In this document: one piece after another, positions 42,896 to 64,000 of the stretch
How positions within the stretch are numbered: the first letter of the stretch is position 1
Layout of the letters: every line of letters begins with the position of its first letter
Origin: an uncultured delta proteobacterium
GTDB lineage: Bacteria > Desulfobacterota > Binatia > UBA9968
NCBI GenBank assembly: GCA_963847445.1
Contig: CAWJZV010000012.1
Span: 34,680-98,679, forward strand
DNA length: 64,000 nt
Direction of reading: 5' to 3'
The notes under the pieces: model-generated
The model's database searches: none
What the model saw: only the letters and a program-made list of their open reading frames with translations
Told to the model about the DNA's origin: nothing
Translations under genes and position numbers: made by a program

Positions 42896-42923
42896 TGGCG
42901 GAGAAGGGAGGGAGTCGAACCCT
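42896..42923 (-). repeat. Attachment site: duplicated 3' end of a tRNA, probably tRNA-Sec (not an intact gene)
   Basis: Minus strand AGGG-TTCGACT-CCCTC-CCTTCTCC-G-CCA: T-arm, 8-nt acceptor strand, G73 and CCA; no 5' half upstream; 47 bp from the integrase stop. Confidence 0.75.
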
Positions 42924-42970
42924 ACAACGGCATAAATCGCAGTAGCAAAACGCAATAAAATCAACGACTT

Positions 42971-44161
42971 TCATGATGTCGCTTTGCTTGTTCTAACGGC
43001 CTTTTGGGCTACGGTAGCCCATTTTTCCAAGATTCCTTTGATGGCAATGCCATCGCGTCTAATCAGGTTTGGAATCCATTTTCGGTAATGCTTAAAAATC
43101 ATTTGTTCCGATGTTCCTGCTGAATTTGCGATCCATCCGATGTCCTCGCCGGAACTCAATGCGATGGTTATAAACGTGTCTTTGGTGTTGTAGCTGTCTC
43201 TTGCTGCGAGGCGACAGCGCTGTAAAGTAGCTAGCCAAATTTTGGAGTGAAGATGTTCGTAGTTTAATGGCCCGCCGTCCCGTTTCCCGATAAAAACGTA
43301 TGGGCTTTTGTTTCGTGTGAGTTTTCTCTGTCGTGCCAGTGCTCGAAAGACGATGGGTCTCTCTTTACAACCGATCACCCTATTGCCGGTTTTTCCACCG
43401 GGAGTCTCGAGCCCGCGGATTATATGTCGTTCCACGGTAATTTCCTGCCGCTCGAAGTCGACAGACTCCCATTTAAGTGCGCATAATTCCCCCGGCCTCA
43501 TTCCTGTCGAGAATGCGACAATATAGTAATTTAGGTAATAGGGATCGACTTTCGATAGAAAAACTTCCACCTCCCTTGGCGTAAGAGGGGCGGATTTGGA
43601 TTTCGCTGTGCGCTTTAGGGCTGGGATACCGGTCAGCGGGTTGTGGGGAATGTGGCCTTGAAGTTTAGCATCGCTGAGTATTTTACGAAGAATACCCATG
43701 ATGTTGTTGATTCGCTTGTTGCTGAGTTTCGTTTTTTTAAGACGTTCACGAAATTCTAAGGCGGATCCCGTGGTAATTTGATCGATGTGAAAATGTCCGA
43801 ATGCTGGAGTGAGGTAGCGACTAACTGCAATGGAGTCGGTTTTCCACGTCGAGGGTTTAATCTCGCGAATGTTCAGTGAACCGTCATCGAGAAATGGCGA
43901 TCGGTCGCTTAGCCATTTCTGCGTGAATTCTGAAAACAGGAGCCGTCGTCGTTTCGCGAATCTTTGAAGTTTACTGCTCTGAGGAAAGTGACGGGCGTAA
44001 TCGAAGGTTCCGGCTCTGATCTCCTCCCGGATCCGTTTTTCTAGGATTCTGAAACGTTCTCGATTTTCGGGAGTGTCGGGAAACGGGCTGTATTCGCGGC
44101 AACGGGTATCCTGATAGCGGAAATCGATGAACAGCTTCCCTTTGTGTGACCGGATGGACAT
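42971..44161 (-). CDS. Tyrosine recombinase/integrase with N-terminal arm-binding (DUF3596-like) domain
   Basis: LFIDFRYQ...FDYARHFPQS; TGMRPGELCALKW; YNTKDTF...AGTSEQMIFKHY. Confidence 0.92.
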   Translation of the reverse strand: MSIRSHKGKLFIDFRYQDTRCREYSPFPDTPENRERFRILEKRIREEIRAGTFDYARHFPQSSKLQRFAKRRRLLFSEFTQKWLSDRSPFLDDGSLNIREIKPSTWKTDSIAVSRYLTPAFGHFHIDQITTGSALEFRERLKKTKLSNKRINNIMGILRKILSDAKLQGHIPHNPLTGIPALKRTAKSKSAPLTPREVEVFLSKVDPYYLNYYIVAFSTGMRPGELCALKWESVDFERQEITVERHIIRGLETPGGKTGNRVIGCKERPIVFRALARQRKLTRNKSPYVFIGKRDGGPLNYEHLHSKIWLATLQRCRLAARDSYNTKDTFITIALSSGEDIGWIANSAGTSEQMIFKHYRKWIPNLIRRDGIAIKGILEKWATVAQKAVRTSKATS

Positions 44162-44421
44162 GTACTTTCTACCAATTCAACGATGGCTTTCCATTTAAAC
44201 AGGGGACGTCCGTTAAGTCCGCGGAAATAGTGCACACCCTCCCTCAGAACCGATCCCATGAGGTTGTAGACGGTTTGGCGGCTGATCGAGAGTCGACTCG
44301 CTAAAATTGCGGCGGTAATGTAAACAGCTTGCTCTCCAGAATCATCAGGAAGAGAACGCGGATTTCCCCTCGAAGATTCGGTGTAATCTAGACTCGGTTG
44401 AAGTGAGTTTGATTTGTTCAA
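44041..44421 (-). CDS. Excisionase-like HTH protein (ends uncertain)
   Basis: YITAAILASRLSISRQTVYNLM...LREGVHYF...PLFKWKAI; directly upstream of the integrase. Confidence 0.7.
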   Translation of the reverse strand: MNKSNSLQPSLDYTESSRGNPRSLPDDSGEQAVYITAAILASRLSISRQTVYNLMGSVLREGVHYFRGLNGRPLFKWKAIVELVESTCPSGHTKGSCSSISAIRIPVAANTARFPTLPKIENVSES

Positions 44422-44589
44422 CGGGTATCGTTCCGTATTAAAATTGAGCTGAATTACCGAAAAGGTACCGGAAGATTAGTTCTGTCGGGTGCCTGTAAAG
44501 ATGACAAAGGCAATTAACTGTGGTTCAATTTAGCGTCCGTCGACGACCGTTTTTTTCCGAATATCATCCCGTTTAATGTTCCTATACGG

Positions 44590-45259
44590 TCACGCAGAAA
44601 CAGCAGTTTTCGAAAGATAGTTAGATACCGCAGCTGCTGTCACTACACCGCCCAGAAATCCTCCGACGTGCGCCCAGAAGGCTACATTTGACGCTCGTGG
44701 TTTCAGCGCAAAGGCAAGCTGCAGAAGAAACCACCCAAGCAAGAAAATCCAGGCGGGAAGCCGGACTGTAAGCCGATGCAAGAAATAGATCAGCGTCGGA
44801 TCAAGCACCAAAGTGATCCGTGCTCTTGGATTGGCGATTAAGAACGCACCGAGAACGCCGCTGATCGCGCCACTGGCACCGATGAGAGGTTTAGTAGATT
44901 CGGATTCCACGATTGCGTGAGCCAAGCACGCCAGTAACGCCTGCGGTCATGTAAAAAGCCAGAAAGTTGCTGGCGCCGAATTCCGATTCCACCCGCCGTC
45001 CGAAAACCAGCAGAAAAAGCATGTTTCCTGACAAATGAATGAGATCTCCGTGCAGAAACATGCACGTGACTAACGTGTGTGATTTGGAAAGATCGCCGAA
45101 TGAAGCCGGGACGAATCCCAAGGTGCGAGCAATCTCGCTTGGAATCACGAAGTTGCTGTTCCAGGTAACGACGAGATGGATGAGAACGTTCGTGCCAATT
45201 ATCGCATACGTTGCCCACGGAGTTCTGATAGGTTTGAGGTTCGTGGCAATCGGAAACAT
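44590..45259 (-). CDS. Rhomboid family intramembrane serine protease (frameshift near 44920)
   Basis: MFLHGDLIHLSGNMLFL, GASGAISG and AFWAHVGGF. Confidence 0.9.
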
Positions 45260-45292
45260 TGTGGTTTCACTGGGAATTCCACATTCGCCGAA

Positions 45293-45943: not shown

Positions 45944-45970
45944 ATAAACCTCCGATGATGCAGAGCAAAA

Positions 45971-46258: not shown

Positions 46259-46360
46259 AATGTTTCTCCTTCCTGATTTTTGAAAATTGTTCTCAAGCCG
46301 TGATTATTTGGTTCCATTTTCTGGTCTTTCTTGAGCGCTCATTGCCCTAGAATCGACCAG

Positions 46361-46846
46361 ATGAGACTCGTGTTAGTGTTGATTTTGTTACTGATACGAA
46401 CCGACTGCTGGGGGTTATCGCCGGAGGTGTACATGCGAGCCGCGGCGGCGACCGGGATTCCCGTTGAGCTTTTACTGGCGATCAGCCACGTCGAAAGCGG
46501 TTTTCAACCCCACGCGCTCAACGTTTCAGGACGTTCTTTCTTTCCGTCCTCAATCTACGAAGCCGTGGGGCTACTCAAACGATCGGGCGACAATGTCGAT
46601 ATCGGCCTCATGCAGGTCAATTGGAGTTATTGGGGAAACCGCTTCGGTCTTTCCAAGTCCGAGCTTTTAGATCCTCAATTAAACGTCCTGGTCGGCGCGA
46701 AGATTCTCGAACACTGCATTCGCGTCAGTGGCAGCTGGTGGAAAGGGGTGGGTCTTTATCACTCGCCGGAAAACTTTCGCCAGCGCGCTTACATCGAAAA
46801 AGTCTGGCGATCGTATCGGCTGGTGCTGATGAAAATGGGAAAATAA
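46361..46846 (+). CDS. Lytic transglycosylase (SLT; VirB1/IagB-like)
   Basis: Signal peptide; AISHVES catalytic Glu, DIGLMQVN, LLDPQLN and YHS. Confidence 0.88.
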   Translation: MRLVLVLILLLIRTDCWGLSPEVYMRAAAATGIPVELLLAISHVESGFQPHALNVSGRSFFPSSIYEAVGLLKRSGDNVDIGLMQVNWSYWGNRFGLSKSELLDPQLNVLVGAKILEHCIRVSGSWWKGVGLYHSPENFRQRAYIEKVWRSYRLVLMKMGK

Positions 46847-46860
46847 ACGATAATGTCGCT

Positions 46861-49004
46861 TCAGTATACGTAGGCAAACAAGACGAGCTGAGTCGGGCTT
46901 TGGGATTTAGTTCCGTCTCTCTTGGTAATCGATTCCCGCCTGGACTCTGCGCAGGCAACGGCATCCTGTCCCGGTTCAATTCGGCTTTGGTTATTCAGAA
47001 CTTCGCTTTGAATGGGCTCATCGGCTCTTTCAGGGAAAGCCTCGTCATCGATTGCTTCCAGGTTGGTATCCTCTGGAACGATCATGTCGGTTTCCTCTTC
47101 GACGCCCCTGAGTTTTCCAAGCTCGCTTTCGAGAGAGATTTGCTCTTCGGCCCGGTCAATAATGGTCTTTGCCAGGGCTACCAGGCCATCTTCTTCGAAT
47201 TCTTCGACGAAGCTTTCCCTCGTGAGTTCCCCCTCCGTCAAAAGCGCCGCGCGCAGTTTCTTGACGTTCAGGGTTATGGCTTTCTCCTGAATGGTTCCCT
47301 TGTAATAGAGGTGATGGACATTCACGGGTTCCTTCTGACCGATGCGCCATGATCTTCTGGAGGCCTGACGCAAGATATAAACGGAATAGTCCTGCTGGTA
47401 CCAAACAACTTCGGGAAACTGGATCAAATCAAGACCGGTCTGAACGTTTCTCGGATGGGTTATCAGAACATCACCTTTGAATGAGTTGATCCATTCCTCC
47501 CGCTCAGCCGCCTTTACCTTGGCGGCTTTGAGCACTTGGGTTTCAAGTCCCGCCTCGCCGAGAATTTTGGTGAGTCTCTCCGTAATGTCCCGGGTTTCTG
47601 TGTGAACGCAGTAGATTACGGCTCTTTCTGCCGGTCTCTTTTTGCTTCCGCGCAGATCCGTAAAAGTTCTTTCTCTTTGGGATAAAGCGTGTTTTCAGGG
47701 AGCGGAGTGGATTCAGCCAATACGCGCCCGCTGTTTTTGTCTTTAATGATTTCGTGGACCCACGGGCTGTCGGAGTAGCCGAGTAAAGCCTGGAGATAGA
47801 TCCCCAGGAGTCGCTTCGAGCCCTGGTTAAGCGCGTTTCTCAATTCCGTGAGCAGTTCCTCCTGAAATGAGCGATAGGCGTCATTCTGTGCCGGCTCCAT
47901 GTCGATCGCGTGGGCTATTTCACGGTAGGGTGGGAGAGCGATATTCAGGTCAGCGAGCTTTAAGAAAATTGCCCTCGGCAAAAGTTCTGGTATGAGCGCC
48001 GGAGAGATTCCCGGACGTTCATGCCAGCGCACCTCCTGGGCTTTCTTCAGGCTCGCCCTTCCTTCATCCTCATTTGAAACATAGGTGATCTTCTCCAGGA
48101 CACCGTAGAGTTCCATCCACCTCTTGATGTCCTTGAACTGTAAAATCCTTCCGTATGTCCGGAGAGATACGGAACAGCAGATAGAAAAGATTCGAGCTGT
48201 AGCCGCCGAGAAGGGTGCCGGTGAGCGCGAGAATTTGTCGCGCGCCTTTCCCAAATGATCGAGAGCAATGCCTTGTGCTGTGGCCGCGCCTTTATATTCG
48301 TGACACTCGTCAGAAATGAGCAGATCGAAATGTCCGGGGTACTTGTTCTTGAGGTAGGTCGCGAGGGGAAAGCGTCTGGGACCTCTTGGGTCCGCCTCCC
48401 ACAATGGCTCACGGCAATCCCTGCACTTCTGTTTTTTCCGGTTGAGGGATTCCTCCGCCAGCGGCAAGCCGTCCCTGTCTACCAGCGGGATTCTGCATTT
48501 AGGGCATACAAAGGTGCCATCCCTGAGGCGCTTTGCGTGTCCCTTCCAGAAATACCCCAGTTTTGCCTTTTCCCGAGAAAGGATTACGAATAGAGACCGG
48601 CGTTTTTCTTTCAGGACTCTTTCAAGGTCGCCAATTTTCTCCGCCACAACCGCGTGAGCAGAAGGAAGGGTTTGTCTGACCTCTCGCCGCCATTTGCCGA
48701 CGAGATGAGGCGGACAGACGACCAGAGTCTTCTCGAAACCAAGAGCGGCAGCAGCGGCAATCGAGATATAGGTTTTGCCAAGACCCATTTCTCCGACGAG
48801 AATTGCGGAATCGCGTGATCGGAGAGCTTGGACGATCCCGCCGATGGCGTCGACCTGGCTGGCGATGGGCCGTCTGGGGAGTTCCTTTATGAGCTTATAG
48901 ATAGCCTTTCGACCAGTCCCTGGGTGGTAGAGTGGATTGGAGTCCCGGCCAACGCTGGCAACGATGACGGAACGGAACTCTTCGATGAAATCGTGGATGT
49001 TCAT
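46861..49004 (-). CDS. SF2 helicase of ICE/plasmid type (frameshifted)
   Basis: Start MNIHDF; GEMGLGKT, VCPPHLVGKW, two CxxC pairs, DECHEYK, TGLDL and LRQASRRSWRIGQ. Confidence 0.85.
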
Positions 49005-50009
49005 ACGATCTGCAGGTATTCGCCCGTGTTCAAATCGAAGGCGTTTATCTGGGTGATGATTCGTTCGCGCTCGGTGATCTTGATTCCTTTTTCGGTTTCC
49101 TCTTCGAATGCGGTCAATGGCCTTCTTCGACGTCCCTTTGATAAGCAGCCTTTTGCCGTTGGCTTCCAGTATCTGGTTATTGATGAGTCCCGCGGCAATC
49201 AGCATTGCCAGATGGGCTTTGCGAGGCGGCATGAGTGGTTGAATAGGTGGTCTTATCTGTTCATCTTCCTCGACCAGACCGAGCGCCGGCTCTTTCCAGA
49301 GGGAACTTGCCTTAAGCTCTTCAAAAAGCTCGTCAGGACCGAACTCAGACGATCGGATAAAGAAGTCTTTCGTGACGGCCGGGATACTGAAGGAGAATTC
49401 CTTTCGATACATTTCGGGGAGATCCACAGCCTGAATTTGGGTCAAGCTGGCAAGAACTTCCCCGTCTATCTCGGCGCGCGCCTTTTTGAGCCCGGCGATG
49501 ACGATTTGCCCGAACGCCTGGAACTCGTCGGCAGGAAATCTTCTGACTTTCAAGTCTTCAAAGTAGGCGGAAAGAACTCGGGCAATTCTTGGTGTGATTC
49601 GTTTTTGCGGCACCACGAAAAGGAGAAGGCCTCCTGGAATGAGATAAGGGAGTGTATGCTTGAGGAAGGAAAGCTCTGTCCGGCCGTCTGCCGCATCGAA
49701 GTCATAAGGAGGATTCAAGTACAAAATTGAAAAGGCTCCGGGGCGTGCTCTTACGCTGAAAAGATCGCTAGCAACGACTTTACTTAAGAGGTTCTTCGCT
49801 ACCTGCGCTCTTTCGGTATTGATTTCTACGCCATAGGCGTCGCATCCAGCAGCGACTGCTATTCCGGCCGCCGGCTCTCCAGTGCCGCAGCAAGGATCGA
49901 GAAGTCGCCGCAGACCAGGCTTTTTCTCGCCGATCCAGGTCTTGATGATGTCGACGACGTTGGGCGGCGTTGGATAGAAACCCGCCTTGGCTTGTGCCTC
50001 AAGTCTCAT
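49001..50009 (-). CDS. Class I SAM-dependent DNA methyltransferase (DUF6094-like; frameshift near 49110)
   Basis: GFYPTP, LDPCCGTG, YGVE, LNPPY and PLMPPRKAHLA; stop overlaps the helicase ATG (ATGA). Confidence 0.82.
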
Positions 50010-50044
50010 GAATACTCAATTCTCGAATGGGAAGAATGAAGCCT

Positions 50045-50668: not shown

Positions 50669-50720
50669 TCTGCTTTATGCCGAGCCGCTCGTTTCGGTGA
50701 TTTTCGGAGATGCTGTGGCG

Positions 50721-51026: not shown

Positions 51027-51035
51027 TTTGGTTGC

Positions 51036-51514
51036 TTAAAGGTGCCCCGAATCCTTGAGTGAAACGTAACTCTTCTTGCCGATGATGATGTGATCGAGAA
51101 ATCGTATGGGCAGGAGATCGGCTATCTGTTTCAAAGACTTCGTTACCGAGATGTCCTCGGCGCTCGGTTTGGGATCACCGGCGGGATGGTTATGCAAGGA
51201 CGATCAACAGCGGCGGCGTTGGTCAACAGAGCGCCTTGCAGAATCGCTCGCGGTTCAAAAAGCGAAGCTGTCAAAGTTCCCCGCGATACTTCTTCAATGG
51301 AGAGCACATGATGTTTGTTGTCTAAATAAGTCGCGATGACGACTTCTCTTGGTTCATCTTCGAGAGCGGAGAAATAATCCCAAACCTCTTTGCTCGAGGT
51401 AAAAGGAATGGCGGGTAGATACGCAGCGGCATTTTCCGCCGCGACCAGTTTCACCCTTACGGTCGGTCCCTGGTAGGTTTTGCGAAAGAGATCCAGATTA
51501 AAAGAGTTCGACAT
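51036..51514 (-). CDS. radC: JAB-domain RadC-like protein (frameshifted)
   Basis: EPREV...YLDNK...VSRGTL...PRAI, then HNHPAGDPKPSAED...LDHIIIG in the shifted frame. Confidence 0.88.
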
Positions 51515-52543
51515 CGTCGGGCTGGTCGTTGCCAGGTAAAGATTTTGGCGATGAGTTACCAACATCGTTCCCGTTTAAATGTTCATGGAGATGGAAAACC
51601 GGAGTCATTTCCGCCACTTCTCTCGGTACAACCCATACCGGCTTTCTACCGTCGAACTGAAGTTTTGCCTCGGCCAGCAGTGCTTTTTGAAGCGACAGGT
51701 GGAGCAGGGAAAACCTAACTTCGGTTCGAGAATCTTCCCGGTTTCCTCACAAGCAGTGCAGGGCTTTTTGATTTGCTTCTTTTCTGTGAGATAGAAGCCG
51801 TTGCCGTCGCACTTTTCACAGACGAGCTTGGGACCGTACTCCCGATCGGGGAGATTTGTCGGAGTTGCGTGGATGACCTTGCGAAACCGCGCCACCACTT
51901 CTTCGTGAAGCTTAGGATCGAACGGATGGGTAACTTCGGCTCTCTGCCATTCGTCGTCTTCGATGGGCGATTCAGGAGTGTATTGTAGCCAACCTCCTGA
52001 CGGAGTAAGGATTCGCGTTTCGATCTTTTCGATGTTCTTTGAACAAAACAGTTCCAGGAGATGAGAAGTCTCCTTGCGGTAACAGACCCAGAGAGCGTTA
52101 TTGAGACCTCCGCCGACGACGTAGGAGTTGAGCTGGCAGCGGTAAGCGTAGTCAATCTTTCCCTGCAGGGCGTTACGAAAACCGTAATTGGACATGCTTT
52201 TCAGCTCGGCGACGGTCCGGCCATAGGATTCCAGAGTAGGAACGCCATCGGCGTGGCCAAAGATCTTTATGCCATCAACCTCGATGTAGAACTCTTTTTC
52301 CTCCGATCCCCATGACTTCGCGCAATGTGTTCTGAATTCCTCCTTCAGCCATTTGTCGACTCGTTTGCCTTCTTCGAGGATCATGAGCACCCGCGCCGGC
52401 ATGGGCTCTGATTTGAAGGTCGAGGGAAAGCGCTGGTAGGCGAGAGCGCGGGCGCATCTCCCGCTGTTGGAAAGACGGAAAGGGTTGCCTGGGTGTTTTT
52501 TACCAATCTCGATATAAAAATCGATCACTCTCTCGATGAGCAT
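51498..52543 (-). CDS. Solo Cas4-like PD-(D/E)XK nuclease with inserted DnaJ-type zinc finger (3' frameshift)
   Basis: SNSGRCAR, GHADG, AELKSM, QLNSY and CSTCRFKKHC; insertion CEKCDGNG...CTACEETG. Confidence 0.75.
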
Positions 52544-53928: not shown

Positions 53929-55056
53929 TTAGATTCTCAATTTCAGGAAATTCCGCATGATGTTGGCCTGGATAGAGCGAATACTCTCCACGGCGTCTTT
54001 CTCTCTTTTCGATCTGGCTAGTTTTTCGGCATCCGAAATGATCGCGGCGATTTCAGTTGCCGCCTGAGACGCTCGTTGGAACATTTCGCTGCCATTCATG
54101 CGGTCTTGTTCCTGCTTTAACTTTTCCAGCTCCTCTCTGGCGCTGTCCAAATATTCGAGCACTTTGGCAAGGCCGGGATCGGTGATGTTAAGAATGGCCT
54201 GGCGCACGGTTATTCTTTCTTCCGGTTGATGCCAAAGGATCGACGACAGCGATTCGAGGTCGTGAAGCTCGGTCACCGGTCGTCCATCCAGAGCCGCTGA
54301 CGCCCTGAGAACCCTGACGGATTCGAACCATCGTCGATTTGAGCTTTTTACCCCTTGGTCGTGGATTTTCTCTCTGAGCTCGGTCAGAGCGTCCTTTACA
54401 TCATTGGAAACCTTGACCCCTTCCGCCGATGTCCAGAGTTGTTCGATTTCATTCATTGGCACCTTTGGCGGGGGGATCTCATTTCGATCCAAGACCGCAC
54501 GGAAGTTTTCCGCCATTTCGATGTCTTTGACTTCTTCTCTGATCAGAAGCCGGTCGTAGATGGCTCGCCGCGTCGAGTCTTCCGGGATTTCATTGGAGCA
54601 GGCAACGGCAAAAACCAGCGGCATCTTTACGGTCTGTCCGCCGTTGGTGAACTTTCCGTCTCGTAGAGCCCAGAGAAGCATGTTGACGACGCTCGCGTTG
54701 GCCTTCCAGATCTCGTCCAAGTATGCCACTTGGGCTTCCGGCAGCTTACCCTCGGTGATGAGAACGTCTTTGTCTTCTTTCAGCGCCTGGATGCTCTGGA
54801 TGCCGAAGATGTCTTTGTGTTTAGCTTCGTCGGTGAAAAGAAATCTGAAAGCTTTGAGCTCCAGGGCATCGCAGAGCACCTCGGCCAAATGACTCTTCGC
54901 GGTTCCGGGCGGACCGAGGAAAAAAACGTGGGTTTTTGCTGTCAAGCCCAAGAGGATTGCCCGGATGGCGTGGTCCAGTTCGACGAAGTTGGAATGAAGA
55001 TAGTTCTTGAGTTCTTCGAATCGCTGCATCTTTTGCTTCTCCTTTGGGTTTTTCAC
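53929..55056 (-). CDS. MoxR-type AAA+ ATPase (RavA-like)
   Basis: GPPGTAKS, LDEIWKA, CSNEIPE, AIYDRLLIR and SNRRW. Confidence 0.9.
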   Translation of the reverse strand: MKNPKEKQKMQRFEELKNYLHSNFVELDHAIRAILLGLTAKTHVFFLGPPGTAKSHLAEVLCDALELKAFRFLFTDEAKHKDIFGIQSIQALKEDKDVLITEGKLPEAQVAYLDEIWKANASVVNMLLWALRDGKFTNGGQTVKMPLVFAVACSNEIPEDSTRRAIYDRLLIREEVKDIEMAENFRAVLDRNEIPPPKVPMNEIEQLWTSAEGVKVSNDVKDALTELREKIHDQGVKSSNRRWFESVRVLRASAALDGRPVTELHDLESLSSILWHQPEERITVRQAILNITDPGLAKVLEYLDSAREELEKLKQEQDRMNGSEMFQRASQAATEIAAIISDAEKLARSKREKDAVESIRSIQANIMRNFLKLRI

Positions 55057-55325
55057 CAGCCGGTAGAGTTGGAATCGAGCCGAAAGTCTTTTACCGACTG
55101 CTCGTAATCTGCTTGGGTGATGTAATTGCTGGCCACGCCGACCTGGCCTTTCATCATGCGAATCAGGTTGATCACCCGGCCGGAAAGGCCCATGTCGTCG
55201 AAAACAAATCGGTCCACGAGGGTTTCCAGTTGGCCGCGAATATCCGCCAGTTCCTCATCGGTCGCATGGAACTCGATGGTAAGCGTGCGTGATTTTCTAT
55301 TTTGCGATTTCATGGTCATCGGCAA
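55053..55325 (-). CDS. Hypothetical protein
   Basis: Co-oriented; stop overlaps the ATPase start. Confidence 0.55.
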   Translation of the reverse strand: MPMTMKSQNRKSRTLTIEFHATDEELADIRGQLETLVDRFVFDDMGLSGRVINLIRMMKGQVGVASNYITQADYEQSVKDFRLDSNSTGW

Positions 55326-55346
55326 AACCTGTCGTCATGCGGATTG

Positions 55347-56252
55347 TCAGATCAGGTCCAGTTGACCGCTGGAGCCAGCGACGTAAACGGCGGGGGATAC
55401 CGATTCTTCTGGGTGGTGATTTACTGCGGGTTTTCCGAGCAGTCTTTCGGCGATTCTCGACTTGGCGTGTTGGATATTCCGTTTCACCTCGTCAAGCTCC
55501 ATGCCGAGACCGATCTCGTAGGCAGCGGCTTGCTCAAGAAGATCCCTGGCGTCTTTGAGCCGAGTATTTAGGGTTTTGGTGTGGGTGTCATCGGAGATTT
55601 CCGCCGTGAGCCGTATCAGAGTTTCAACCGATGTCCGGAAATGATCGTGGGCTCGTTCGACGACCTTTTGGACTTCATCACCAACCACCGGTGAAACCCG
55701 AATCGTGCTTTCCTGGCCCAGGCTGTCGATCACGGTCATTAGCTCAAGAACTTCGGGAATGTATTTCTCAAGGGCAAAATAGATTTCTCCGTTCTTGGGC
55801 CGAACCGGGATTCCCATGCAGGCGGTCAGATACTTCGTCACAACGATCGAAAGGTCCCTGGTGATGGCGGTCTCCATGTGAAACCGGAAGCCGTTTTCGA
55901 GCGAGCTCCTGATTTCCGGATAGGTCGTGTTCACTTCTATCCGACCCCGTTCCACGTACGCTTTGCCGACACCAGCGTCGATGTCGCCGTTGCTCAGCGC
56001 CTCGCGGCTCAAAATGATCTGCACCGGTTTGTCGTTGACCTTTTCGAACGACGATTCTTCAAAGGTGTAGCGCTTTTGATCGAGATTGAGGCTCAAAGCT
56101 CTTCTTAACGCGGTCTCCGGCCTGATCGGCTTTAAAGGAATTGTGATCGGCAGGGTTTCGAGTTTACGCGCGAGAATCTCTCTCTTGCAGCTAAAGAGGT
56201 AGAGATCTTTCATGACGTAACGGCCTGGGGATTGTTGTTGAAGCTGTGCCAT
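55347..56252 (-). CDS. Hypothetical protein resembling DUF6744/DUF3150-type partners of AAA-VWA pairs
   Basis: PETALRRA, IPVRPKNGEIYF and a helical C-terminus (AAAYEIGLG); strong RBS. Confidence 0.6.
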   Translation of the reverse strand: MAQLQQQSPGRYVMKDLYLFSCKREILARKLETLPITIPLKPIRPETALRRALSLNLDQKRYTFEESSFEKVNDKPVQIILSREALSNGDIDAGVGKAYVERGRIEVNTTYPEIRSSLENGFRFHMETAITRDLSIVVTKYLTACMGIPVRPKNGEIYFALEKYIPEVLELMTVIDSLGQESTIRVSPVVGDEVQKVVERAHDHFRTSVETLIRLTAEISDDTHTKTLNTRLKDARDLLEQAAAYEIGLGMELDEVKRNIQHAKSRIAERLLGKPAVNHHPEESVSPAVYVAGSSGQLDLI

Positions 56253-56367: not shown

Positions 56368-56706
56368 CTAGTGGAGCGGTCTGGGAGAAAGCTTGTAGAT
56401 TCCGATGTGATCCGTCCCGTGGGTTGTCATCATGATTAAAGACTCACCGGGTTCCAGTTCTTTTAGAAACTGCTGGTAATCGGCTGCACATTGCTGATCG
56501 ATCGATAAGACCTCGGGAACGTCCGATGACCTGATCGACATGATGGTCAGAAGATGCCCCCTGCGGTTTACATGAACCGCGACCCTGGCGCCGCATTTTT
56601 CCATTCCTTGAAATATCTGCTTCGAGATCAGATCGCAGATGAGTTCGATGATTTCCATGTTCAACTGACACTCATGGCAGTCGACATGTTCTAAGCATGC
56701 CATCAT
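56368..56706 (-). CDS. Hypothetical protein with N-terminal CxxHxxCxxC
   Basis: Intact ORF overlapping the upstream stop. Confidence 0.55.
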   Translation of the reverse strand: MMACLEHVDCHECQLNMEIIELICDLISKQIFQGMEKCGARVAVHVNRRGHLLTIMSIRSSDVPEVLSIDQQCAADYQQFLKELEPGESLIMMTTHGTDHIGIYKLSPRPLH

Positions 56707-56939
56707 GGCTTGTTTCGTTTCCTCGCTACCCAGTCGAGATAAGCCTTAGGATCACCGTGAAACTTGGCCGGAGCATTTCCGGGGACAGCGAGATGGCCGA
56801 TAAGTTCGATCAAAGATCGTGAGACTCCCGGACGACGGGAGCCGGTGACTCGTACGCTTAGGTGAGTCGAAGTGAGTTCAATGAAATAGGGCGTGCCCGG
56901 AATGCTGCGTCGAAACGGTTTTGGTTTGAGATCGACCAT
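56703..56939 (-). CDS. Hypothetical protein
   Basis: Intact ORF tightly packed in the gene train. Confidence 0.55.
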   Translation of the reverse strand: MVDLKPKPFRRSIPGTPYFIELTSTHLSVRVTGSRRPGVSRSLIELIGHLAVPGNAPAKFHGDPKAYLDWVARKRNKP

Positions 56940-56940
56940 G

Positions 56941-57175
56941 TTATTTTTTCACCAAAGTTAGATGCCGCGTATCCCTTCGGTTCATAACGGGTAAGTCCAA
57001 GATTCTCTGTCCAGCGAGCCGATACGCATTGCAGCAGGGCTTACCGCCAAGCCGCATGCGTCTCGGGATGGCCGCATTTCTGAACAATGCCGCCCACAAC
57101 CCAGACTTGGAGATCGTAGTCGAAACCGCTCCACACGCGGCCATGCCGGTTCAAGTTTCTACTCATGCGCGTCAT
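56941..57175 (-). CDS. Small Cys/His-rich hypothetical protein (frameshifted)
   Basis: Joined translation MTRMSRNLNRHGRVWSGFDYDLQVWVVGGIVQKCGHPETMRLGGKPCCNAYRLAGQRILDL...KK. Confidence 0.55.
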
Positions 57176-57259
57176 TGGCTTTTCGTCCCTTCCAGAATGA
57201 ACTCATGAAAGTTTTGTGGGAGTTGAAGGAAGAGGATTCCATTTCAACTCCGAGAACGG

Positions 57260-57968
57260 CTAGCGCGATAAGCTGCCGCTTATCTGTCCGTTCTGGCCGA
57301 CATAGATCTGGGCGCCGCCAAGCCCGATCGATCCCCCGTTTGGTCCGCCGGAGAGGCGGAACGGTCCGGATGTGTCAGCTGCGCGTCGCGGGTGCATTCG
57401 CCGTCGCCTTCTGAAGCGGAGCCGATGAATCAGGTGCGGCCTGTTCATCTGGAGTCTCCACCAGGCTCGATCTGGCGATCAGGCCATCTGGATTTCCCTT
57501 ACGGGAGACCACCAGGGCCTTATCGTCCCGGCTGATGCCCGCCACGCGGACCAGGGTTCCTTGCGGGATAAGAATTCTCGCACCATCTCTTCTGGTGGTG
57601 AGAACCGTATCCCGCGAAAGCCGGTAGAGAGCAGGCTTCGGGAAAAACGAGATCTCGTCTCTTTCCCTCGACACTGTCTCCATCTTTGCAGGAGCATTTC
57701 GTCTCATCGTTGCCTGCGGTGCCGCTGTTTTGTTGGCGACCGATGGCACTTTCTGAGACGCTGGATTTGCTGCGGTCGGCCCTTTGGACTCCACCGTGGC
57801 GCCTTCCAGTGTGATCACCGCGGGCGCGGCAACGGGTTCTTTTCGCTCCGTCGCTTGCACCATGCGGTTGCGTTTGGCCAATACGACAAAACCGAGTGTC
57901 GTATTGATGGCCAGTGACGCGATCAGCAGCACCTGCAAAATTGGCTTCTCCTTTCTTGTTCTTCTCAT
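57260..57968 (-). CDS. Membrane-anchored protein with Ala/Pro-rich stalk and SH3-like domain (probable 3' frameshift)
   Basis: RBS GAGGAGG; basic N-terminus plus TM; IPQGTLVRVAG...LVVSRKGNPDGLI. Confidence 0.6.
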
Positions 57969-58191
57969 GATGCCCTCCTCCCGGAGGCCCCGTTTGGTTT
58001 TCCTCCTTGGGGGAGGTGATGGGGGCCTCCGCCGCTGGAGTCTCTTAACTCCACTGGTGGAAGCCCCCACCGGTGACATCACTTCCTCTTCCCTCAACGA
58101 TTTCAGTCTAAGAGATTTGAGCGGCCATGGGCCGTCGGAATTGGACATATTTGAGGCGGGAAATGGTGCGATTTCCGAGGAATCGCAGATA

Positions 58192-59611
58192 CTACGCGTG
58201 TTTGAGGATTTGCGTGAGTAGGATTTGCTTCTGCTCGATGGTCGTCGAAGATATCTTTGATCGATTCCAGCTTCTCGGATGGGAACAGGTCCGGCTTGGC
58301 GATCAGCTCGCTTACGAGAAACTTTTCCAATTGTCGTTTACGCTCGCCAATTCTTTCCTTTTTCTCCCGGCGCGCTTGGACTTTCTCATCCATTGCCCAA
58401 GCTGACAGCTGCAAAGCTGCGGCTGCCTGTTGAGCAAAGCGACTGGCTTCTAATGGATCGGGGATCGCTGTCGCCAGGCGAATGACTTCTTCAGTCAGAC
58501 TGTCGATGCCCTCGGTTTCTTTTCGCCGGGTGATGATCTCTATCGCCGCATCCTGGACCGGCTTTGCTTTCTCGATCAGCGCTTCGAGTTCAGCGACATT
58601 TCCTTCTCGGACGTACTGGTCGGGATCGTAACCTTCAGGCAGCGACACGGCCTTCACGGTCGAGCCGGGCTGCGAGATTCTCAACGCTTTTAGCAATGCG
58701 GCTCTTCCGCCGGCATCGCCGTCGAAGATCAAGATGATCTCACGAGCGAGAGTAGCGAGCATTGAGCTTTGCTCAGCGGTGATCTCAGTCCCGAGTAAAC
58801 CGACGGTGTTTTTGAAACCGGCCTGATGCAGGGTCAAGACATCGAAGTAACCTTCGACCACGAGAACGGTATCGTTGGAAATCTGTAATTGTTTCAGTCC
58901 GAAGAGAATCTTTCTTTTGTTGAAAATCGGCGAGTCGGAAGAGTTCAGATACTTCGCCTGCGCTGAAGTTATCGATGGCCCTTCCACCGAATCCGACCGT
59001 CACGCCCTTTGGTCTCTAAAGGGGGAAAATGATTCTGCCCATGAATGGGCAGATCACTCCTTGGTCTTTCTCTTTGAGAACACCGGCGCCGATGGGAATT
59101 TCCTTTTTCGCGATGCCGGCTTTCTTGAGCGCGACGATCAAGTCTTTGATCGAGCCGGCGTAACCAAGCCCGAACTCTTCTTGAATGTCCGGTTTGATGC
59201 CGCGCTCGGTCAAATAATTGACCGGCGATCGGTAAGTGCCCGACCGAAGTTGATTTGAGAACTCCTCCTGGGCTTTGGTGAGGCAAAGGAAAAGAGGCTC
59301 CCGGTTGCTATCCGTTCCGGTGCAAAAGAAACCTTGGCTCTTTGAGCGAGCATGCGCACGGCTTCAGGAAACGGGAGATTCTTGTGTTTTCGCAGGAACG
59401 TAATCGCGTTGCCGCTGGTGCCGCAGCCAAAGCAGCGGAAGATCTTCTTCTCCGGGCTCACACTCAGTGAAGGGGACTTGTCTTCGTGAAACGGACAGAG
59501 ACCCTGAAAGCTCTGGCCAAGTTTCTTAAGCGCGATGAACGAACCGATGAGTTCGACGATGTCGGTCGCTTCAAGGACTCGGTCAATAGTTGCCTGTGGG
59601 ATGGGGGGCAT
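58192..59611 (-). CDS. dnaG: DnaG-type DNA primase (multiple frameshifts)
   Basis: CPFHEDKSPS...CFGC CHC2 finger; RIIFP, GFGGR, KYLNSSDSPIFNK; Toprim VEGYFDV, DGDAGG and DPD. Confidence 0.92.
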
Positions 59612-59677
59612 AAGCAGGATTCGTTTTAGCCGATACATTGAAGGTTGTTCCGTTGGGAATGAGGCCGAGATTGATCT

Positions 59678-61461
59678 TCAGTGAGTCTCTTTTACCGACT
59701 CGCATTCTTGGAGCGCCATTTCGCGAATAAACCGGGAGGGTTCGGTTGGCTCTCCGTACAGGGTCTTTGGCGATAAGGCGATGAACAGATCTTTCGCTCG
59801 GGTCAGAGCGACATAGGCGAGCCGGCGTTCTTCCGGGATGTTGGCTTGGTCTCTAATCTCAAGGGGTAGAATCCCTTCGACACAGCCAAGAAGAATGACC
59901 GCCCGATGCTCCAACCCTTTTGCTCGGTGGATGGTGGACAGGTGAACGCGCTTCTCCCTGGGAATATCGTTCAAATGCCGGAGCCATTCGATCTGTTCGA
60001 CAATCTCACCAAGATTGCGGTAGCGCGCCATCAGTCTAAGAAGTCCCTTTGCTGTCCCGGTTGTCAGTGATGAACCCGCGTTTCTCGATGATCGCCGATG
60101 CGATCCTTGGCACTTCCAATGGCTGTCTGTCATGGCAGCGTTGGACTTCTCGCAAATCGTCGAACAGTAGATTCATGCCTCGGTCGATTTCGGTATCGTG
60201 GATCGCGCGCTCCAACGCAGTGTCGAAAGGACTCTGCCTGAGTTCCTTCGCCAACGAGCCGATCTCGTCGGCATGGCGCCGCCCGAGATAGTGCCTGAGC
60301 AGGATTTCCTCCCAAGCGTCGTCCGGCCTCCAGGCTTGCAGGCAAAGCGGCAGCAGCAGGCCTTCTTTCAGTAGCACGCTGGTATTCTTCAGGACCGAGA
60401 AAGGGATTTCATGGTCGATGAGTTCGGACTCTAGCTCCGCACGGTAGTGATTGACCCGGTAGAGAAGCAGAATCTCCCTCGGCTCGAATCGCTCGTGAAT
60501 CAGATCTTCAACGATTCTCGCCGCCAGCTGCGCTTCCTCGATTTCATTTCCCACGGCCACCCATATCGGAGTTACCCCTGCATGTCGGGTCGGTATCGAG
60601 TAATTGTCGCTGCCGTTTCGTTGGATGAGCCGATTGGCTGCATCGAGAATCTTTCCCGAAGATCGGTGGTTTCTGACCAGATAAAACTTCCGGGTATCCG
60701 GGTAGATGTCGGCGAGCCGTTCGATCTGATCGTAGCAGGCACCCTTGAAGGAGAAGATCGCCTGGTTGTGATCCAAAAAGAAGGTGACGTTAGGACTGTC
60801 CCCCGCAAGCCGGCGTATCAGTTCAGTCTGAACCGGATCGAGGTCCTGTGCTTCGTCGACCAGGATATGGCTTGGCTGTGGATAACAGTTCTCGGCCGAT
60901 TGGAGCGTGTCCCAGTGCCAACAGAAGCAGATCGTCATAATCGAGTCGTTGGCCTTTTAGTCTTTCGTATTCGCAGACAAGCTTCCCTCGTTCTCCTTCG
61001 TGATCCAACAGCCCGAGTTTGGTCTGGCTGATTATTTGAGCGATCTCCCGCACGTCGCTTTCAATACCGACCGCAGCGTGCGGCTAGTCGAACAATGGCT
61101 GCATGATCGTAGTGCGAAAGAATGGTCAAACGTCGTTGTCTGGAAGTTTTCAGGATCCCGTAGCAAAGGGAGTGGATGGTCGAGATGGTGACAGAATTGG
61201 AACGTTCCTGCCTGGCGATTCTGCCCACGCATCTCCTCGGCCGCCTTGCGAGTATGCGTGACACACAAGATTCGGGCATCGGGATAACAGCTACGAATGT
61301 GCAGGGCTTTGGCGGCCAGCGTCTGAGTCTTGCCCGAGCCCGGCCCCGCGATCACGATCGATGGACCGTCGATCGCCCGTGATCGCCGCTTCCTGCTCGG
61401 CGTTGATGGCTCCGGGTAAACCCGCGCTTTTCGGCGACCGGTCGAGCTTCACTGTCGTCAT
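59678..61461 (-). CDS. UvrD/PcrA-type SF1 helicase (multiple frameshifts)
   Basis: AGPGSGKT, TIHS, VDEAQD, QAIFSFKGA, NHRS, TIHRAKGLE, EERRLAYVALTRA and PSRF. Confidence 0.92.
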
Positions 61462-61621
61462 TGGCATTGGCATCTGCGGGCGTTAGTCCTTCCTGATTTT
61501 CCAAATTGGGCAGGGCATCCGCGATTATCTGGTTCACCAGGCGCGTCATCGGAATCTTTTTGACTCTCCTCAAGCGGTAGAGTTGGGGAATCAGCGCTTC
61601 GTCAATCTTTGGACTGTACAT
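61352..61621 (-). CDS. Small ribbon-helix-helix-like DNA-binding protein
   Basis: MYSPKIDEALIPQLYRLRRVKKIPMTRLVNQIIADAL has a beta-helix-helix pattern. Confidence 0.55.
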   Translation of the reverse strand: MYSPKIDEALIPQLYRLRRVKKIPMTRLVNQIIADALPNLENQEGLTPADANANDDSEARPVAEKRGFTRSHQRRAGSGDHGRSTVHRS

Positions 61622-61678
61622 TGGCGGGAAATCTCCTGTCGGTGCGAGATCAACAAGATCTGACGTTCTCAATCGCAG

Positions 61679-62069
61679 CTAAAACGGAATATCGTCCCCA
61701 TCCGGATCGACTTGCGGCGGCTGTTCTTCTTTCGCCTTTCCGTTGCCCACCGCCGAGGAAGCGTACCTTCTGGGCGACGATTTCCGTGACATGCTGCTCC
61801 TTGCCTTCCTTGTTGTCAAAGGATCGGTGGCGCAGCTCGCCTTCAACATAAACCTGCCGGCCTTTCTCCAAGAATTGACCGCAAGCCTCACCTTGCTTTC
61901 CCCACACCACGACGGAATGCCATTCGGTTGCCTGCTGTTTTTCACCGTTGCCGTTGACCCAGGTGTTCGACGTGGCGAGCGAGAATCTTGTCACCGCCTT
62001 TCCGGTTGCGGTAAATCGTGTGTCCGGGTCCTTGCCGAGATTGCCGAGCAAAATCACTTTGTTGATCAT
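61679..62069 (-). CDS. ssb: Single-stranded DNA-binding protein (frameshift before the tail)
   Basis: INKVILLGNLGKDP, TEWH and KGRQVYVEG; acidic tail DDIPF in the shifted frame. Confidence 0.95.
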
Positions 62070-62098
62070 GAGACCCTCCTATTTGTGAATTATCGCTT

Positions 62099-62534
62099 TC
62101 ACGCCAAAGCCTGCTCGTTTCCTTTTTGAGTTTCGGCAGCCCTTTGTGCCAGCGAGTCGGCTAACTCGTTGCCGGGATTGCCGTTGTGTCCCCTGACGTA
62201 GGCGAAGGTTAGCTGTGGGAACTCTTTGAGTAGACCCCTGATCTCCATTACCAACTCCAGATTCGCTTTTGCCTTCCAGTTCTGGGAGAAGATCCCGACG
62301 ACGAGCTGCGAGTCCGTTAGAATCTTGATGGGCTGCTCGGAGAAATCTCGGTTCTTGATTTCAGTCAGCGCGTGCTTGAGGGCAAGGAACTCCGCTTGGT
62401 TGTTGGTGACGTGACCCAGCGGTATTCCGTGTGCGCTGAGCAATTCCTGGCTGGCAGCGTTTTTGATCACGATTCCCGCACCGCCCGGACCAGGATTCCC
62501 TTTTGGATGAACCGTCGATGTAAACTTCGATCAT
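62099..62534 (-). CDS. rnhA: Ribonuclease HI (5' frameshift)
   Basis: YIDGSS/GNPGPGGAG, TNNQAEF, TDSQLV and VRGHNGNPGNELADSLA. Confidence 0.92.
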
Positions 62535-63057
62535 TCTTTCACCTCTCGTTCGATTTCTTCGGTCAATGGCGATCACTTCCTTTTTGGCTTTCTAATTTCA
62601 GATGGCGGTGCCGATTCCGTTTTGATCTTCACCGCCAGGACTGAGGTGCTGACATTGCTGCGTGGGAGTTTTTGAATTCGGCCCGCCCCGCCGCCGGGCA
62701 CACCCATGCGTGGGAGCAGAGATGAGGGATCGCCTGCTCCGTTTGTTATTTCAAATACACGGCAGTGATTTGATTCCATTTTATTGGGGTGGACTGCCGT
62801 TCGGATGAAACCGGGATGGGACTATTGTGGCAGAAAATCAAATCTGTGAGGTGAAAACTGAAATCAGGGGGAGGGGGAAGGAATCGAATGCGTGCTACGC
62901 TCGTGACGACAAACGGGACTGGCAAACTCGTCGTGCCTAGCACGATAGCCGCGATTCGGCACGTGGTGGGAGGGTGACTCCAGCTCTATATATATAATGG
63001 GAATTTGTTACGGAACCGCTTGGTGGCCCGTTCAAAGTTACCGCGGGCGGCACAAGT

Positions 63058-63137
63058 GATTGCCGGCAGAAAAGTTTTGATTGCCAGCAGAAACAAGAAG
63101 TCTCCCGGCGGAAAATAATGGTTGTCCCGCACAGAAA
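63058..63137 (+). repeat. Iteron-like direct repeats with 21-bp period
   Basis: GATTGCCGGCAGAAA (63058), GATTGCCAGCAGAAA (63079), GTCTCCCGGCGGAAA (63100), degenerate GTTGTCCCGCACAGAAA (63121). Confidence 0.6.
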
Positions 63138-63668
63138 CCTCGCAAAGTGACAATGATCTATTTAATGTTACAGCTCGCACGTCATAGTCACCTTTCGCAT
63201 CACTCGCAAGCCTTCAGAGCAATTTTTGTTACAGAATGGGCTACAGATTCATAGAAGAATGGTCGTGAGCTTTTCGGATGTTGTTAATAAGATCGGACTG
63301 AAGCGTAGTTCGGCCCAATCCTAGGACGTATCCTGCTGTTGCGGGGGAATACGCTGCGGGAGGATTTAATGTAGGCTTTTATCTGGCCGCTCGTCGAGTG
63401 GTTAAGTGTCCGGGGCTTTCAGAGCGAAAAATCATCAACTGTCGCGGGAATGTCAGCTTGACCGCCCTTCTTTCCCCATCTCGGATTTGAGTCTTGACTG
63501 TGCTAACCAGCCCGCCCTATGTTACACAGGGTTCCCATTATCCGCAGCGACTAACGCACGAAATGGTGTTCAAGATGTTAGAATCGGGCACGGAACAAGG
63601 GTTTGCGTGACCTTGAGGCCAATTCGGTGGAGGTTAGAGGAATTTCACGGTTAGTGATTGACTAGAAA

Positions 63669-64000
63669 ATGGAAATACTAATTGTCTTGGCCGTGGTCGC
63701 CCTAGTGATCTGGCTAATTACAAGGGATCGTCAAGAAACCCCGACCTTAATAGATCGAAGCCGAACGCCGGTTACTAATCAAACAAGTACTATTCCCCCG
63801 ACAAGAAACACTGCTAGCTACACTCCTCGATCAGTAACCGCCGATGAATGCTGGATTTCGTCTGGTCATGACGTGACGGTCGGAACCTACAATATCCCTG
63901 ATGGCTTGTTGTATGTCGGCAAGGGGCTCGTGTCCGTGGGAGGGTACGGAGTAGAGCCTGCGCTCATCGACCCGTCACTGCCAACCAACCGTTTGACCCC
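63669..64000 (+). CDS. TerB N-terminal domain protein (Shango SngA-like), 5' part; runs off the window
   Basis: Manual translation MEILIVLAVVALVIWLI...CWISSGHDVTVGTYNIPDGLLYVGKGL...EPALIDPSLP. Confidence 0.72.
   Translation, partial: MEILIVLAVVALVIWLITRDRQETPTLIDRSRTPVTNQTSTIPPTRNTASYTPRSVTADECWISSGHDVTVGTYNIPDGLLYVGKGLVSVGGYGVEPALIDPSLPTNRLT

Follow-up and report, generated by a model that had tools for sequence, protein, structure and literature searches.

The window analyzed here is a 64,000-nt stretch of DNA (G000:C12:34,680-98,679) from the genome of an uncultured delta proteobacterium, referred to as G000. From position 42,896 to about 62,700 it carries an island that is best interpreted, with a probability of about 0.6, as the stranded integrase-proximal arm of an integrative and conjugative element (ICE) inserted into selC, the gene for tRNA-Sec. 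This copy would be non-conjugative and decaying. The island consists of about 19 kb of co-oriented DNA-processing genes located behind a tyrosine integrase and read toward the attachment (att) site. The GC content is 0.58-0.61 left of about 42,900 and 0.49-0.55 from there through the end of the window. G000 is a metagenome-assembled genome (MAG) of 7.19 Mb in 48 contigs, 91.8% complete with 6.9% contamination. Extension of the contig to the right, proposed in the initial annotation of this DNA, stops immediately: coordinate 64,000 is the end of the contig, no continuation was found within the G000 assembly, and the last 300 nt overlap with no other G000 contig.

The insertion site was identified by comparison with an empty site. 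Another genome of the same genus, G079, matches segments of the chromosomal flank at 92-96% identity and has an intact tRNA-Sec gene at the corresponding place, on contig C13. Positions 42,896-42,923 of the window are identical to the last 28 nt of that gene, and the identity between the two genomes starts exactly 28 nt ahead of the CCA end of the tRNA and runs on into the flank. Thus selC is the target, its final 28 nt contain the crossover point, and the left junction arose by genuine insertion and is no chimera. The 26-nt tRNA core occurs once in the window, against 0 expected from 100 shuffles, and ARAGORN found no whole tRNA there. By these alignments the element is integrated into selC through a tyrosine-recombinase crossover, as the initial annotation, which described a tRNA-integrated element, had supposed. 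Because the 28 nt are the displaced original 3' end of the gene, a rebuilt tRNA would be expected at the element's opposite, right-hand terminus.

Such a rebuilt tRNA was not found. The 28-nt core has no second copy anywhere in the G000 assembly, and no tRNA-Sec scores over the Rfam cut-off in it; an Rfam search of 42,000-64,000 at E<=1 gave two matches, both at chance level. The upstream flank of selC is on another contig, C4, where the tRNA is reduced to its initial 23 nt (C4:239,464-239,486, with 2 mismatches). Beyond this stub lie genes for a 455-aa unknown protein, a LolA-like protein and a MacB-type ABC transporter, followed by rpsB, uppS, rseP and bamA. Parts of the C4 DNA next to the stub are found in two other genomes (G084 and G076) in other contexts, and the G084 stretch examined contains no tRNA. 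The middle 44 nt of selC are absent from the G000 assembly. The two flanking att repeats and rebuilt tRNA that mark an inserted ICE were thus not found in this incomplete assembly. Since selC is not reconstituted, excision through att x att recombination is unlikely. The initial annotation had named a missing second att copy together with a chimeric junction as a finding that would speak against its reading; no second copy was found, and the left junction is sound.

The selenocysteine system of G000 looks broken. The selC gene persists as the 23-nt 5' stub and the 28-nt 3' stub on separate contigs, and selB, located between selA and selD (G000:C14:192,903-194,790), is in at least three frames, with four private +1 insertions. 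Five relatives align across selB and have 0-3 private indels each, of lengths that are not multiples of 3, over the same 3.1 kb.

The family to which the arm belongs was surveyed with its DUF6744-like protein as the marker, in 122 other genomes of the order, 400 other genomes sampled across the phylum, metagenomes and a viral-contig collection. The marker is present in four of the 122 genomes, with orthologues that are 72-96% identical, and in none of the 400, which are a sample of the phylum. Orthologues in the same identity range were also found in 37 of 257 candidate metagenome stretches (37 loci), and relatives and in none of the 69 candidate stretches from the viral-contig collection. In this survey the family is confined to one order of Binatia-like MAGs and to soil metagenomes. 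Counterparts of the core of the arm, 44,650-56,310, with 74-93% nucleotide identity are present in G083, which has two copies, in G119 and in several metagenome contigs, and the search for synteny in related genomes that had been suggested earlier thus recovered the same array. The integration modules vary. One G083 copy (G083:C12) adjoins the tmRNA gene and smpB, and the other (G083:C19) adjoins tRNA-Gly(CCC). By these comparisons the family exchanges integrases and targets (selC, ssrA and tRNA-Gly).

In a further relative, G109, the array is joined to conjugation genes. Contig G109:C209 begins in ssb, and its RNase H is 92% identical in protein sequence to that of the window. Upstream of rnhA it encodes a 131-aa ORF (open reading frame), a 599-aa coupling protein, a ParM-like protein and a 490-aa unknown protein, with TraU and thioredoxin-like genes on the divergent strand. 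The coupling protein matches the Pfam families TrwB_AAD_bind, T4SS-DNA_transf and TraG-D_C, and its best NCBIfam match is SXT_TraD (3e-23). Another contig, G109:C205, carries F-type TraC (TIGR02746 2e-94), TraV and TraB. Contigs of G004 encode TraG_N, TraU, ParM, TraB, TraV and a whole coupling protein, as well as a 579-aa HD-domain protein with a weak match to MobH (4e-4), a candidate relaxase. In G119 only a C-terminal fragment of the coupling protein, with a stop codon, was found, and neither TraU nor TraC; G083 has no coupling protein, TraU or TraC.

Since the same array is joined in G109 to a coupling protein, ParM and a divergent TraU, the region in the window is the integrase-proximal arm of an ICE family. 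All transfer proteins score far below the curated cut-offs, which makes the family F-type/MOB_H-like and places it outside the named families. On the evidence of sequence it is an undescribed ICE family of F-type/MOB_H-like kind. The earlier remark that the gene combination was not recognized as a named ICE family agrees with the scores for SXT/R391 membership, which were not reached. The initial annotation had offered a new ICE family or a satellite; membership in an ICE family is borne out by G109:C209, and a working arm in this genome is not. A literature search covering titles and abstracts found no described ICE in Binatia-like bacteria and no description of this family, and a search for DUF6094 and DUF6744 returned, at title level, one unrelated paper.

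The transfer half was not found in G000. Of the window ORFs, 33 were scanned against Pfam and 26 of these also against PHROGs; none matches a terminase, capsid, portal, VirB4, coupling protein or relaxase, as had been noted from the letters for all but the portal. Of the VirB4 and mating-pair genes expected in an ICE, the G000 assembly holds 0 matches (PF03135, PF11130 and PF06834). As for the coupling protein, there are 0 matches to PF02534 and no tblastn match to that of G109, and the G109 transfer proteins have no match in the assembly. The low-GC ends of four other G000 contigs (C7, C48, C24 and C20) contain no transfer or virion genes; they encode type IV pilus/Tad, IS21, RHS and toxin-antitoxin genes.

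The genes that are present are largely interrupted. About 24 private frameshifts, unnoticed in the initial annotation, break about 10 genes of the arm. Comparison with five relatives identified 11 private indels of lengths that are not multiples of 3 in 45,397-56,310, against 0-1 in three relatives with short contigs. Nine further single-base indels were found between 58,238 and 61,381 relative to G119, in which DnaG and UvrD are whole, and further frameshifts lie near 44,925, 57,385, 61,745 and 62,503. In a comparison of about 12 kb of chromosomal flank with G071 and G079, indels of this kind are seen solely in intergenic DNA or at the start of a gene. Contigs from four other metagenome runs provided an independent depth comparison, in which positions left uncovered do not count as evidence. 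At 46,361, 48,138, 48,242, 53,236 and 61,380 part of this independent depth shares the state of the window. From these alignments the frameshifts are judged to be real decay with a confidence of roughly two in three. Together, the private frameshifts, the lack of a second att and the lack of transfer genes make a stranded remnant likelier than a working ICE arm.

Several observations weigh against this interpretation. The prevalence of +1 insertions at sites outside homopolymers is unusual for natural decay. The indels are frequent in few-contig assemblies (11 in the window and 10 in G083:C12) and rare in many-contig ones (0, 1, 1 and 5), which fits assembly error. At nine places the indels are absent from the contigs of other samples. 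For 58,178, none of the covering contigs in any of the four runs has the extra base; for 47,624 the same is true of two of the four runs, and at 47,635 the extra base is missing from nearly all covering depth. None of the four runs is the source sample, and none contains more than 0.32 of the sampled words. By long-open-frame coverage, a crude whole-genome measure that is not discriminating, the element stands at the 11th percentile. The relaxase call in the relatives is weak (HD E=1e-3, MobH E=4e-4; Atlas scores 0.76-0.79, with TraI_2 families among the nearest clusters at 0.76-0.77). The linkage of the G109 contig carrying rnhA and the type IV secretion system (T4SS) genes to the DUF6744 core is inferred from the sequence shared with the window, not from one contig. 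Finally, the MAG is incomplete and the window lies at a contig end, so that assembly or binning could have missed the transfer half and a rebuilt tRNA-Sec.

The private frameshifts are nearly all of the +1, non-homopolymer type (eight of the nine in DnaG-UvrD and all four in selB), a pattern that fits neither natural decay nor the usual homopolymer errors well. Split genes also occur at other contig ends: IS21 istB is in two ORFs at the end of C7 (L031 12,719-15,067) and an RHS gene is in three at the start of C20 (L032 1,334-7,965). Broken genes are thus not confined to the island.

The bias, the missing bases and the contig end would all be accounted for if the element were a complete, functional ICE whose transfer half and rebuilt tRNA-Sec escaped assembly or binning and whose frameshifts are errors of the assembly consensus. 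The integrase, AAA+ and DUF6744 ORFs, which are intact, are consistent with this alternative. It is nevertheless unlikely. The indels are concentrated in the element and selB, with none within the genes of the chromosomal flank, and part of the independent short-contig depth agrees with the window at several of them. The point of departure from the T4SS-linked form, at about 62,708, lies inside a gene. The right flank recurs in G119, where the genes are whole, with only the remnant of a coupling protein and neither TraU nor TraC. In addition, the 5' stub of tRNA-Sec on C4 is joined to unrelated DNA and not to an element end.

The right flank of the arm has features of its own. About 1.17 kb without a convincing gene (62,504-63,668) is followed by a + strand ORF that runs off the contig; the initial annotation had put the non-coding region at about 1.1 kb, close to the measured length. 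It had also described a divergent, defence-like gene, of which the + strand ORF stands; the defence role is not supported, as the best match (TerB_N, E=0.0087) is below the cut-off and PADLOC gives none. The window tracks G109 until about 62,708, a position within the small gene that precedes rnhA, and then diverges. Against G119, the identity in 62,700-63,299 is 75-87% per 100-nt bin, and that of the whole 5.2-kb block including the adjacent coding DNA is 76.7%. Over 62,535-63,310 it is 75-93% per 100 nt, equal to or above the conservation of the neighboring genes. This stretch has direct repeats of TGATTGCCGGCAGAAA at 63,057 and 63,078, 21 nt apart, two copies of TTTGTTAC(G/A)GAA and a TATATATATAAT run. 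Promoter-like and terminator-like signals in 62,300-63,800 are no more numerous than in shuffled sequence. In the four other metagenomes the summed depth drops roughly 3- to 30-fold right of 62,677, and contigs of other samples branch into different sequence at 62,063 and 62,545. Thus the right flank seen in the window is a minority form.

The conserved non-coding DNA raises the question of a working non-autonomous element. The arm would then be a "hitcher", an integrative mobilizable element for which full-length ICEs of the family would supply the transfer machinery in trans, acting at a putative origin of transfer (oriT) in 62,708-63,310. Such a hitcher would have lost relaxase, coupling protein and T4SS, keep a self-sufficient toolkit for priming and strand conversion (DnaG, UvrD, SSB, RNase H and, in one copy, a ribonucleotide reductase), together with the RavA/ViaA-DUF6744 module, and spread between genera, with the conserved stretch of 0.6-0.85 kb as its putative oriT. 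Genomic islands acting as minimal hitchers are the subject of a preprint (10.64898/2026.01.13.699239). The right-flank variant without T4SS genes is common to two genera (G000 and G119) and its non-coding stretch is conserved, which suggests that the variant itself has spread; in the G119 copy the genes for DnaG, UvrD, VWA and the helicase are unbroken, and other genomes of the order contain full ICEs of the family. Against this, no oriT or relaxase was identified, the stretch has no similarity to the transfer contigs of the relatives, and its promoter-like and terminator-like counts are those of chance. This copy has its frameshifts and no second att, and both right flanks are known only for 0.7-1.7 kb past the conserved stretch, a length that leaves room for transfer genes further on. 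The hitcher is therefore a doubtful reading. With it goes, at the same low likelihood, the corollary that arrival of the element and a later rearrangement at selC may have cost the host its selenocysteine decoding. If true, the split selC and frameshifted selB would neatly illustrate how a mobile element can deprive its host of a decoding trait.

A phage origin of the island, as the left or early part of a prophage or phage satellite with a lambda-like int-xis-early operon read from a control region toward int, is very improbable: the architecture resembles a pL-type operon, PHROGs has matches for the primase, SSB, RNase H, Cas4-domain exonuclease, AAA and VWA proteins, the G119 copy carries a ribonucleotide reductase and the AAA protein has relatives in jumbo phages (30-33% identical), but no capsid, portal, terminase or tail match was found by Pfam or PHROGs in the window or any related locus scanned, the marker recurs in metagenome stretches and not in the viral collection, and in G109, the sole relative with sequence upstream of rnhA, T4SS genes are found there.

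The features of the probable stranded ICE arm and its flanks are listed in the table. The integrase ORF lies 48 nt from the att core, placing an integrase at the end of the element as in an ICE. In the alignment the motifs YNTKDTF and AG-TS, with the Tyr kept, are shared by this integrase and the four relatives nearest to it (77-95% identical); more distant members of the integrase family have YQTRHT and GH(T/S/A). We take the clade to have Lys in place of the second catalytic Arg and to lack the second His. Conservation of the active-site residues across the clade suggests an active site that is non-canonical yet working.

Table. Features of the selC island and its flanks in the window.
Feature	Position	Strand	Matches and remarks
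Displaced tRNA-Sec 3' end (28 nt)	42896..42923	-	T-arm 3' half, 8-nt acceptor strand, GCCA; marks the left end of the element as its att core
Tyrosine integrase, 396 aa, intact	42971..44161	-	Pfam Arm-DNA-bind_2 6e-22, Phage_integrase, SAM-like; phrog_1
126-aa ORF, possible excisionase or regulator	44041..44421	-	HTH_11 E=0.003, HTH_22 E=0.007 (below cut-offs); no PHROG match
Rhomboid protease, split into two frames	44590..45259	-	Pfam Rhomboid profile 5-58 and 59-141 on two ORFs
Two conserved ORFs, 216 aa and 95 aa	45293..46258	-	No family match above threshold
SLT lytic transglycosylase	46331..46846	+	Pfam SLT 2e-14; NCBIfam IagB 1e-16, VirB1 3.5e-4 (both below cut-offs)
DUF6094 methyltransferase + ResIII/SNF2 helicase, fused then broken	46861..50009	-	Pfam; private indels 47,630, 48,140, 48,244, 49,110
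Two conserved ORFs, 207 aa and 101 aa	50045..51026	-	No family match; 78-79% identical to G119 orthologues
RadC-like JAB-domain gene	51143..51565	-	Pfam RadC 6.5e-13, profile 1-67 of 121 only; phrog_10276
Cas4-domain (PD-(D/E)XK) exonuclease, Cys-rich C-terminus	51605..52543	-	phrog_1990 2e-20 on intact 348-aa G119 orthologue
ViaA-like VWA protein, split 233 aa + 184 aa	52577..53925	-	Pfam VWA_2
MoxR/RavA-like AAA+ ATPase, intact	53929..55056	-	Pfam bpMoxR 7.5e-42, AAA_5, AAA_lid_8; NCBIfam RavA 5.6e-52 (below cut-off)
90-aa ORF and 301-aa DUF6744-like protein, both intact	55053..56252	-	Pfam DUF6744 4e-6, 26.3 bits vs cut-off 27
Three small ORFs (112, 78, 67 aa)	56368..57144	-	No family matches; variable spot of family
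Low-complexity 257-aa ORF	57263..58148	-	298 aa in G119; tblastn frame change 57,382-57,390, last ~40 residues out of frame
DnaG-type primase in three frames	58103..59638	-	Zn_ribbon_DnaG, DNAG_N, Toprim on three ORFs; 485 aa in G119
UvrD/Rep-type helicase, at least 4 pieces	59678..61376	-	UvrD-helicase, UvrD_C on three of four ORFs; 592 aa in G119
106-aa ORF	61352..61672	-	No match in Pfam, PHROGs, NCBIfam, PADLOC
SSB, OB fold intact	61650..62102	-	Pfam SSB 5e-36; C-terminal tail out of frame, +1 insertion at 61,745
RNase H	62099..62534	-	Pfam RNase_H 6e-16; 92% identical to G109 protein
Conserved stretch without convincing gene	62535..63310	.	To ~62,708, 3' remnant of small gene upstream of rnhA in G109
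Low-GC DNA (0.50), 110-aa partial ORF 63,669-end	63311..64000	+	Unalignable with G119 (36-50% over aligned parts)

The calls of int, rhomboid, methyltransferase-helicase, radC, Cas4-like, AAA/VWA, dnaG, uvrD, ssb and rnhA in the initial annotation have Pfam or PHROGs support, and the transglycosylase, as stated there, is the single opposed gene: among the ORFs taken as genes, it is the sole one on the + strand from the integrase to rnhA. Other labels found no such support. The ORF called xis has only sub-threshold helix-turn-helix matches, and the ORF at 61,352-61,672 called RHH-like matches no family. The 216-aa ORF called Whirly-like (45,293-45,943) gives only a sub-threshold match to DUF5560 (E=0.0057) and an AlphaFold2 model too poor for a fold search (pLDDT 36.4); it is 98% identical in G083:C12. 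The model of the DUF6744-like protein is likewise too poor for a fold search (pLDDT 42.7).

The breaks become evident on comparison with the relatives. The rhomboid protease is a single 225-aa gene in G083:C12. The methyltransferase-helicase ORFs change frame near 49,089-49,153 and 47,625-47,676, and G119 has two genes there, of 335 aa and 713 aa. The RadC-like gene has private 1-nt insertions at 51,195 and 51,205, and the Cas4-like gene changes frame at 51,671-51,672, leaving its last ~57 residues out of frame. The VWA gene is split by a private 1-nt deletion at 53,236; the protein is 449 aa in relatives, and the G119 orthologue matches NCBIfam ViaA (1e-14) and phrog_24053 (1e-41). At 57,389, in the low-complexity ORF, contigs of other samples are one base shorter. 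Relative to G119, dnaG has 1-nt indels at 58,238, 58,969 and 59,325, and uvrD has 1-nt insertions at 60,044, 60,914, 61,075 and 61,224, with a fifth at 61,381 just upstream. The first ~10 codons of rnhA, including the DGS motif, are in another frame, with one extra base near 62,503 compared with G109 and G119.

The small ORFs between the marker gene and the low-complexity ORF occupy a spot (56,310-57,218) with different contents in the relatives. In G119:C158 (12,474-17,080 of L017) it is filled by a 780-aa ribonucleotide reductase with a TSCPD domain and by TfoX_N and GFA genes, and other relatives have an HTH_37/Gp49 pair directly next to the marker gene, where the spot begins on the left. 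Judged by these replacements, the spot is a cargo hotspot.

A role of the arm in defence or anti-defence has been looked for. PADLOC gives only generic similarities (ZorD, DpdE, mad2 and DRT-associated DnaG), from which no defence system is callable; the methyltransferase and SNF2 helicase match defence component models (mad2 1e-19, ZorD 5.5e-18) and the primase matches DRT-associated models. No protein of the arm matched a characterized anti-defence family in Pfam, NCBIfam or PADLOC. In tblastn searches of phages and plasmids, the AAA protein retrieves generic RavA/MoxR relatives at <40% identity, and the DUF6744-like protein has no plasmid match.

From the arm and its relatives, the working of an intact family member may be outlined. 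A single array would run from a candidate HD/MobH-like relaxase, via the ParM-like gene and the SXT-TraD-like coupling protein, into rnhA, ssb, uvrD and dnaG, and continue through DUF6744, the RavA/ViaA-like AAA-VWA pair, the Cas4-like nuclease, RadC and the methyltransferase and SNF2 helicase to an exchangeable integrase. The F-type mating-pair operon, with TraU and, in the same genomes, TraB, TraV, TraC and TraG_N, would be transcribed divergently. The integrase would insert the circular form into the 3' end of a tRNA or tmRNA gene. DnaG, SSB, RNase H and UvrD, with the ribonucleotide reductase in G119, may prime the incoming single strand and synthesize its complement. The orphan methyltransferase with its helicase may protect against restriction; phage P1 DarB is reportedly a similar methyltransferase-helicase pairing. 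The Cas4-like nuclease and RadC may function in recombination and repair, and the SLT protein in opening the cell wall. Since the candidate relaxase heads the same array in G109, the arm, for which the initial annotation had suggested a leading position, could be lagging instead.

These results give an initial sketch of a family of conjugative elements in the Binatia-like bacteria, a soil lineage not yet cultured; the family joins an F-type transfer system to a long single-orientation array of host-like replication enzymes. As for the window, the island is genuine and sits in selC, and the copy is probably stranded, a fairly ordinary remnant of a little-known family.

Judged by its proteins, the family resembles SXT/R391 in the kind of its parts, not in membership. 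SXT/R391 elements are MOB_H with an F-type MPF_F and target prfC. Like them, the relatives have a coupling protein closest to SXT_TraD, F-type TraC, TraB, TraV, TraU and TraG_N, thioredoxin-like genes in the transfer operon and a ParM-like gene beside a candidate HD-domain relaxase; the element also has a tyrosine integrase at one of its ends and carries ssb and RadC-type genes. Unlike them, the relatives' proteins reach only 82 bits for SXT_TraD (cut-off 366) and 317 for TraC (cut-off 567), no TraI_2 Pfam match was found, and the target is selC, tmRNA or tRNA-Gly. Host-like DnaG, UvrD and RNase H are present, with a ribonucleotide reductase in one copy, and the host is an uncultured Binatia-like bacterium. 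In enterobacterial selC islands such as LEE and SHI-2 the 3' end of tRNA-Sec is the attachment site for tyrosine-integrase islands. The island described here differs from these in that its cargo and integrase family are unrelated and the tRNA gene is not restored in the G000 assembly.

The array also resembles the leading regions of plasmids, in which SSB and methyltransferases are reported to be enriched (Samuel et al. 2024, PMC11541004). As in these regions, it is a co-oriented run near transfer functions with SSB and an orphan methyltransferase. It differs in being longer (19-30 kb), rich in replication enzymes and, in G109, on the same array as the candidate relaxase.

A parallel in gene order is found in another phylum. 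A 137-kb Bacillota plasmid of Alicyclobacillus sp. ALC3 (NZ_CP066785.1) matches the window, by its annotation, in the succession of gene families: ssb, then DUF6744-AAA-VWA, then DUF6094 and a DEAD/DEAH helicase. Its VWA protein is 35% identical to that of the window over 61% of the query, and its AAA protein 29% over 97%. Unlike the element of the window, the plasmid is typed as non-mobilizable, and the stretch concerned (108,281-133,123) has no integrase, DnaG, UvrD or RNase H. The neighbors of the module are an AcrIIA9-family gene, PcfJ, dnaN and a KilAC antirepressor. The DUF6744-AAA-VWA / DUF6094-helicase module thus crosses phyla, and its recurrence on a distant-phylum plasmid beside an anti-CRISPR-family gene makes it a candidate establishment or anti-defence cassette, a role that the plasmid context supports and does not prove.

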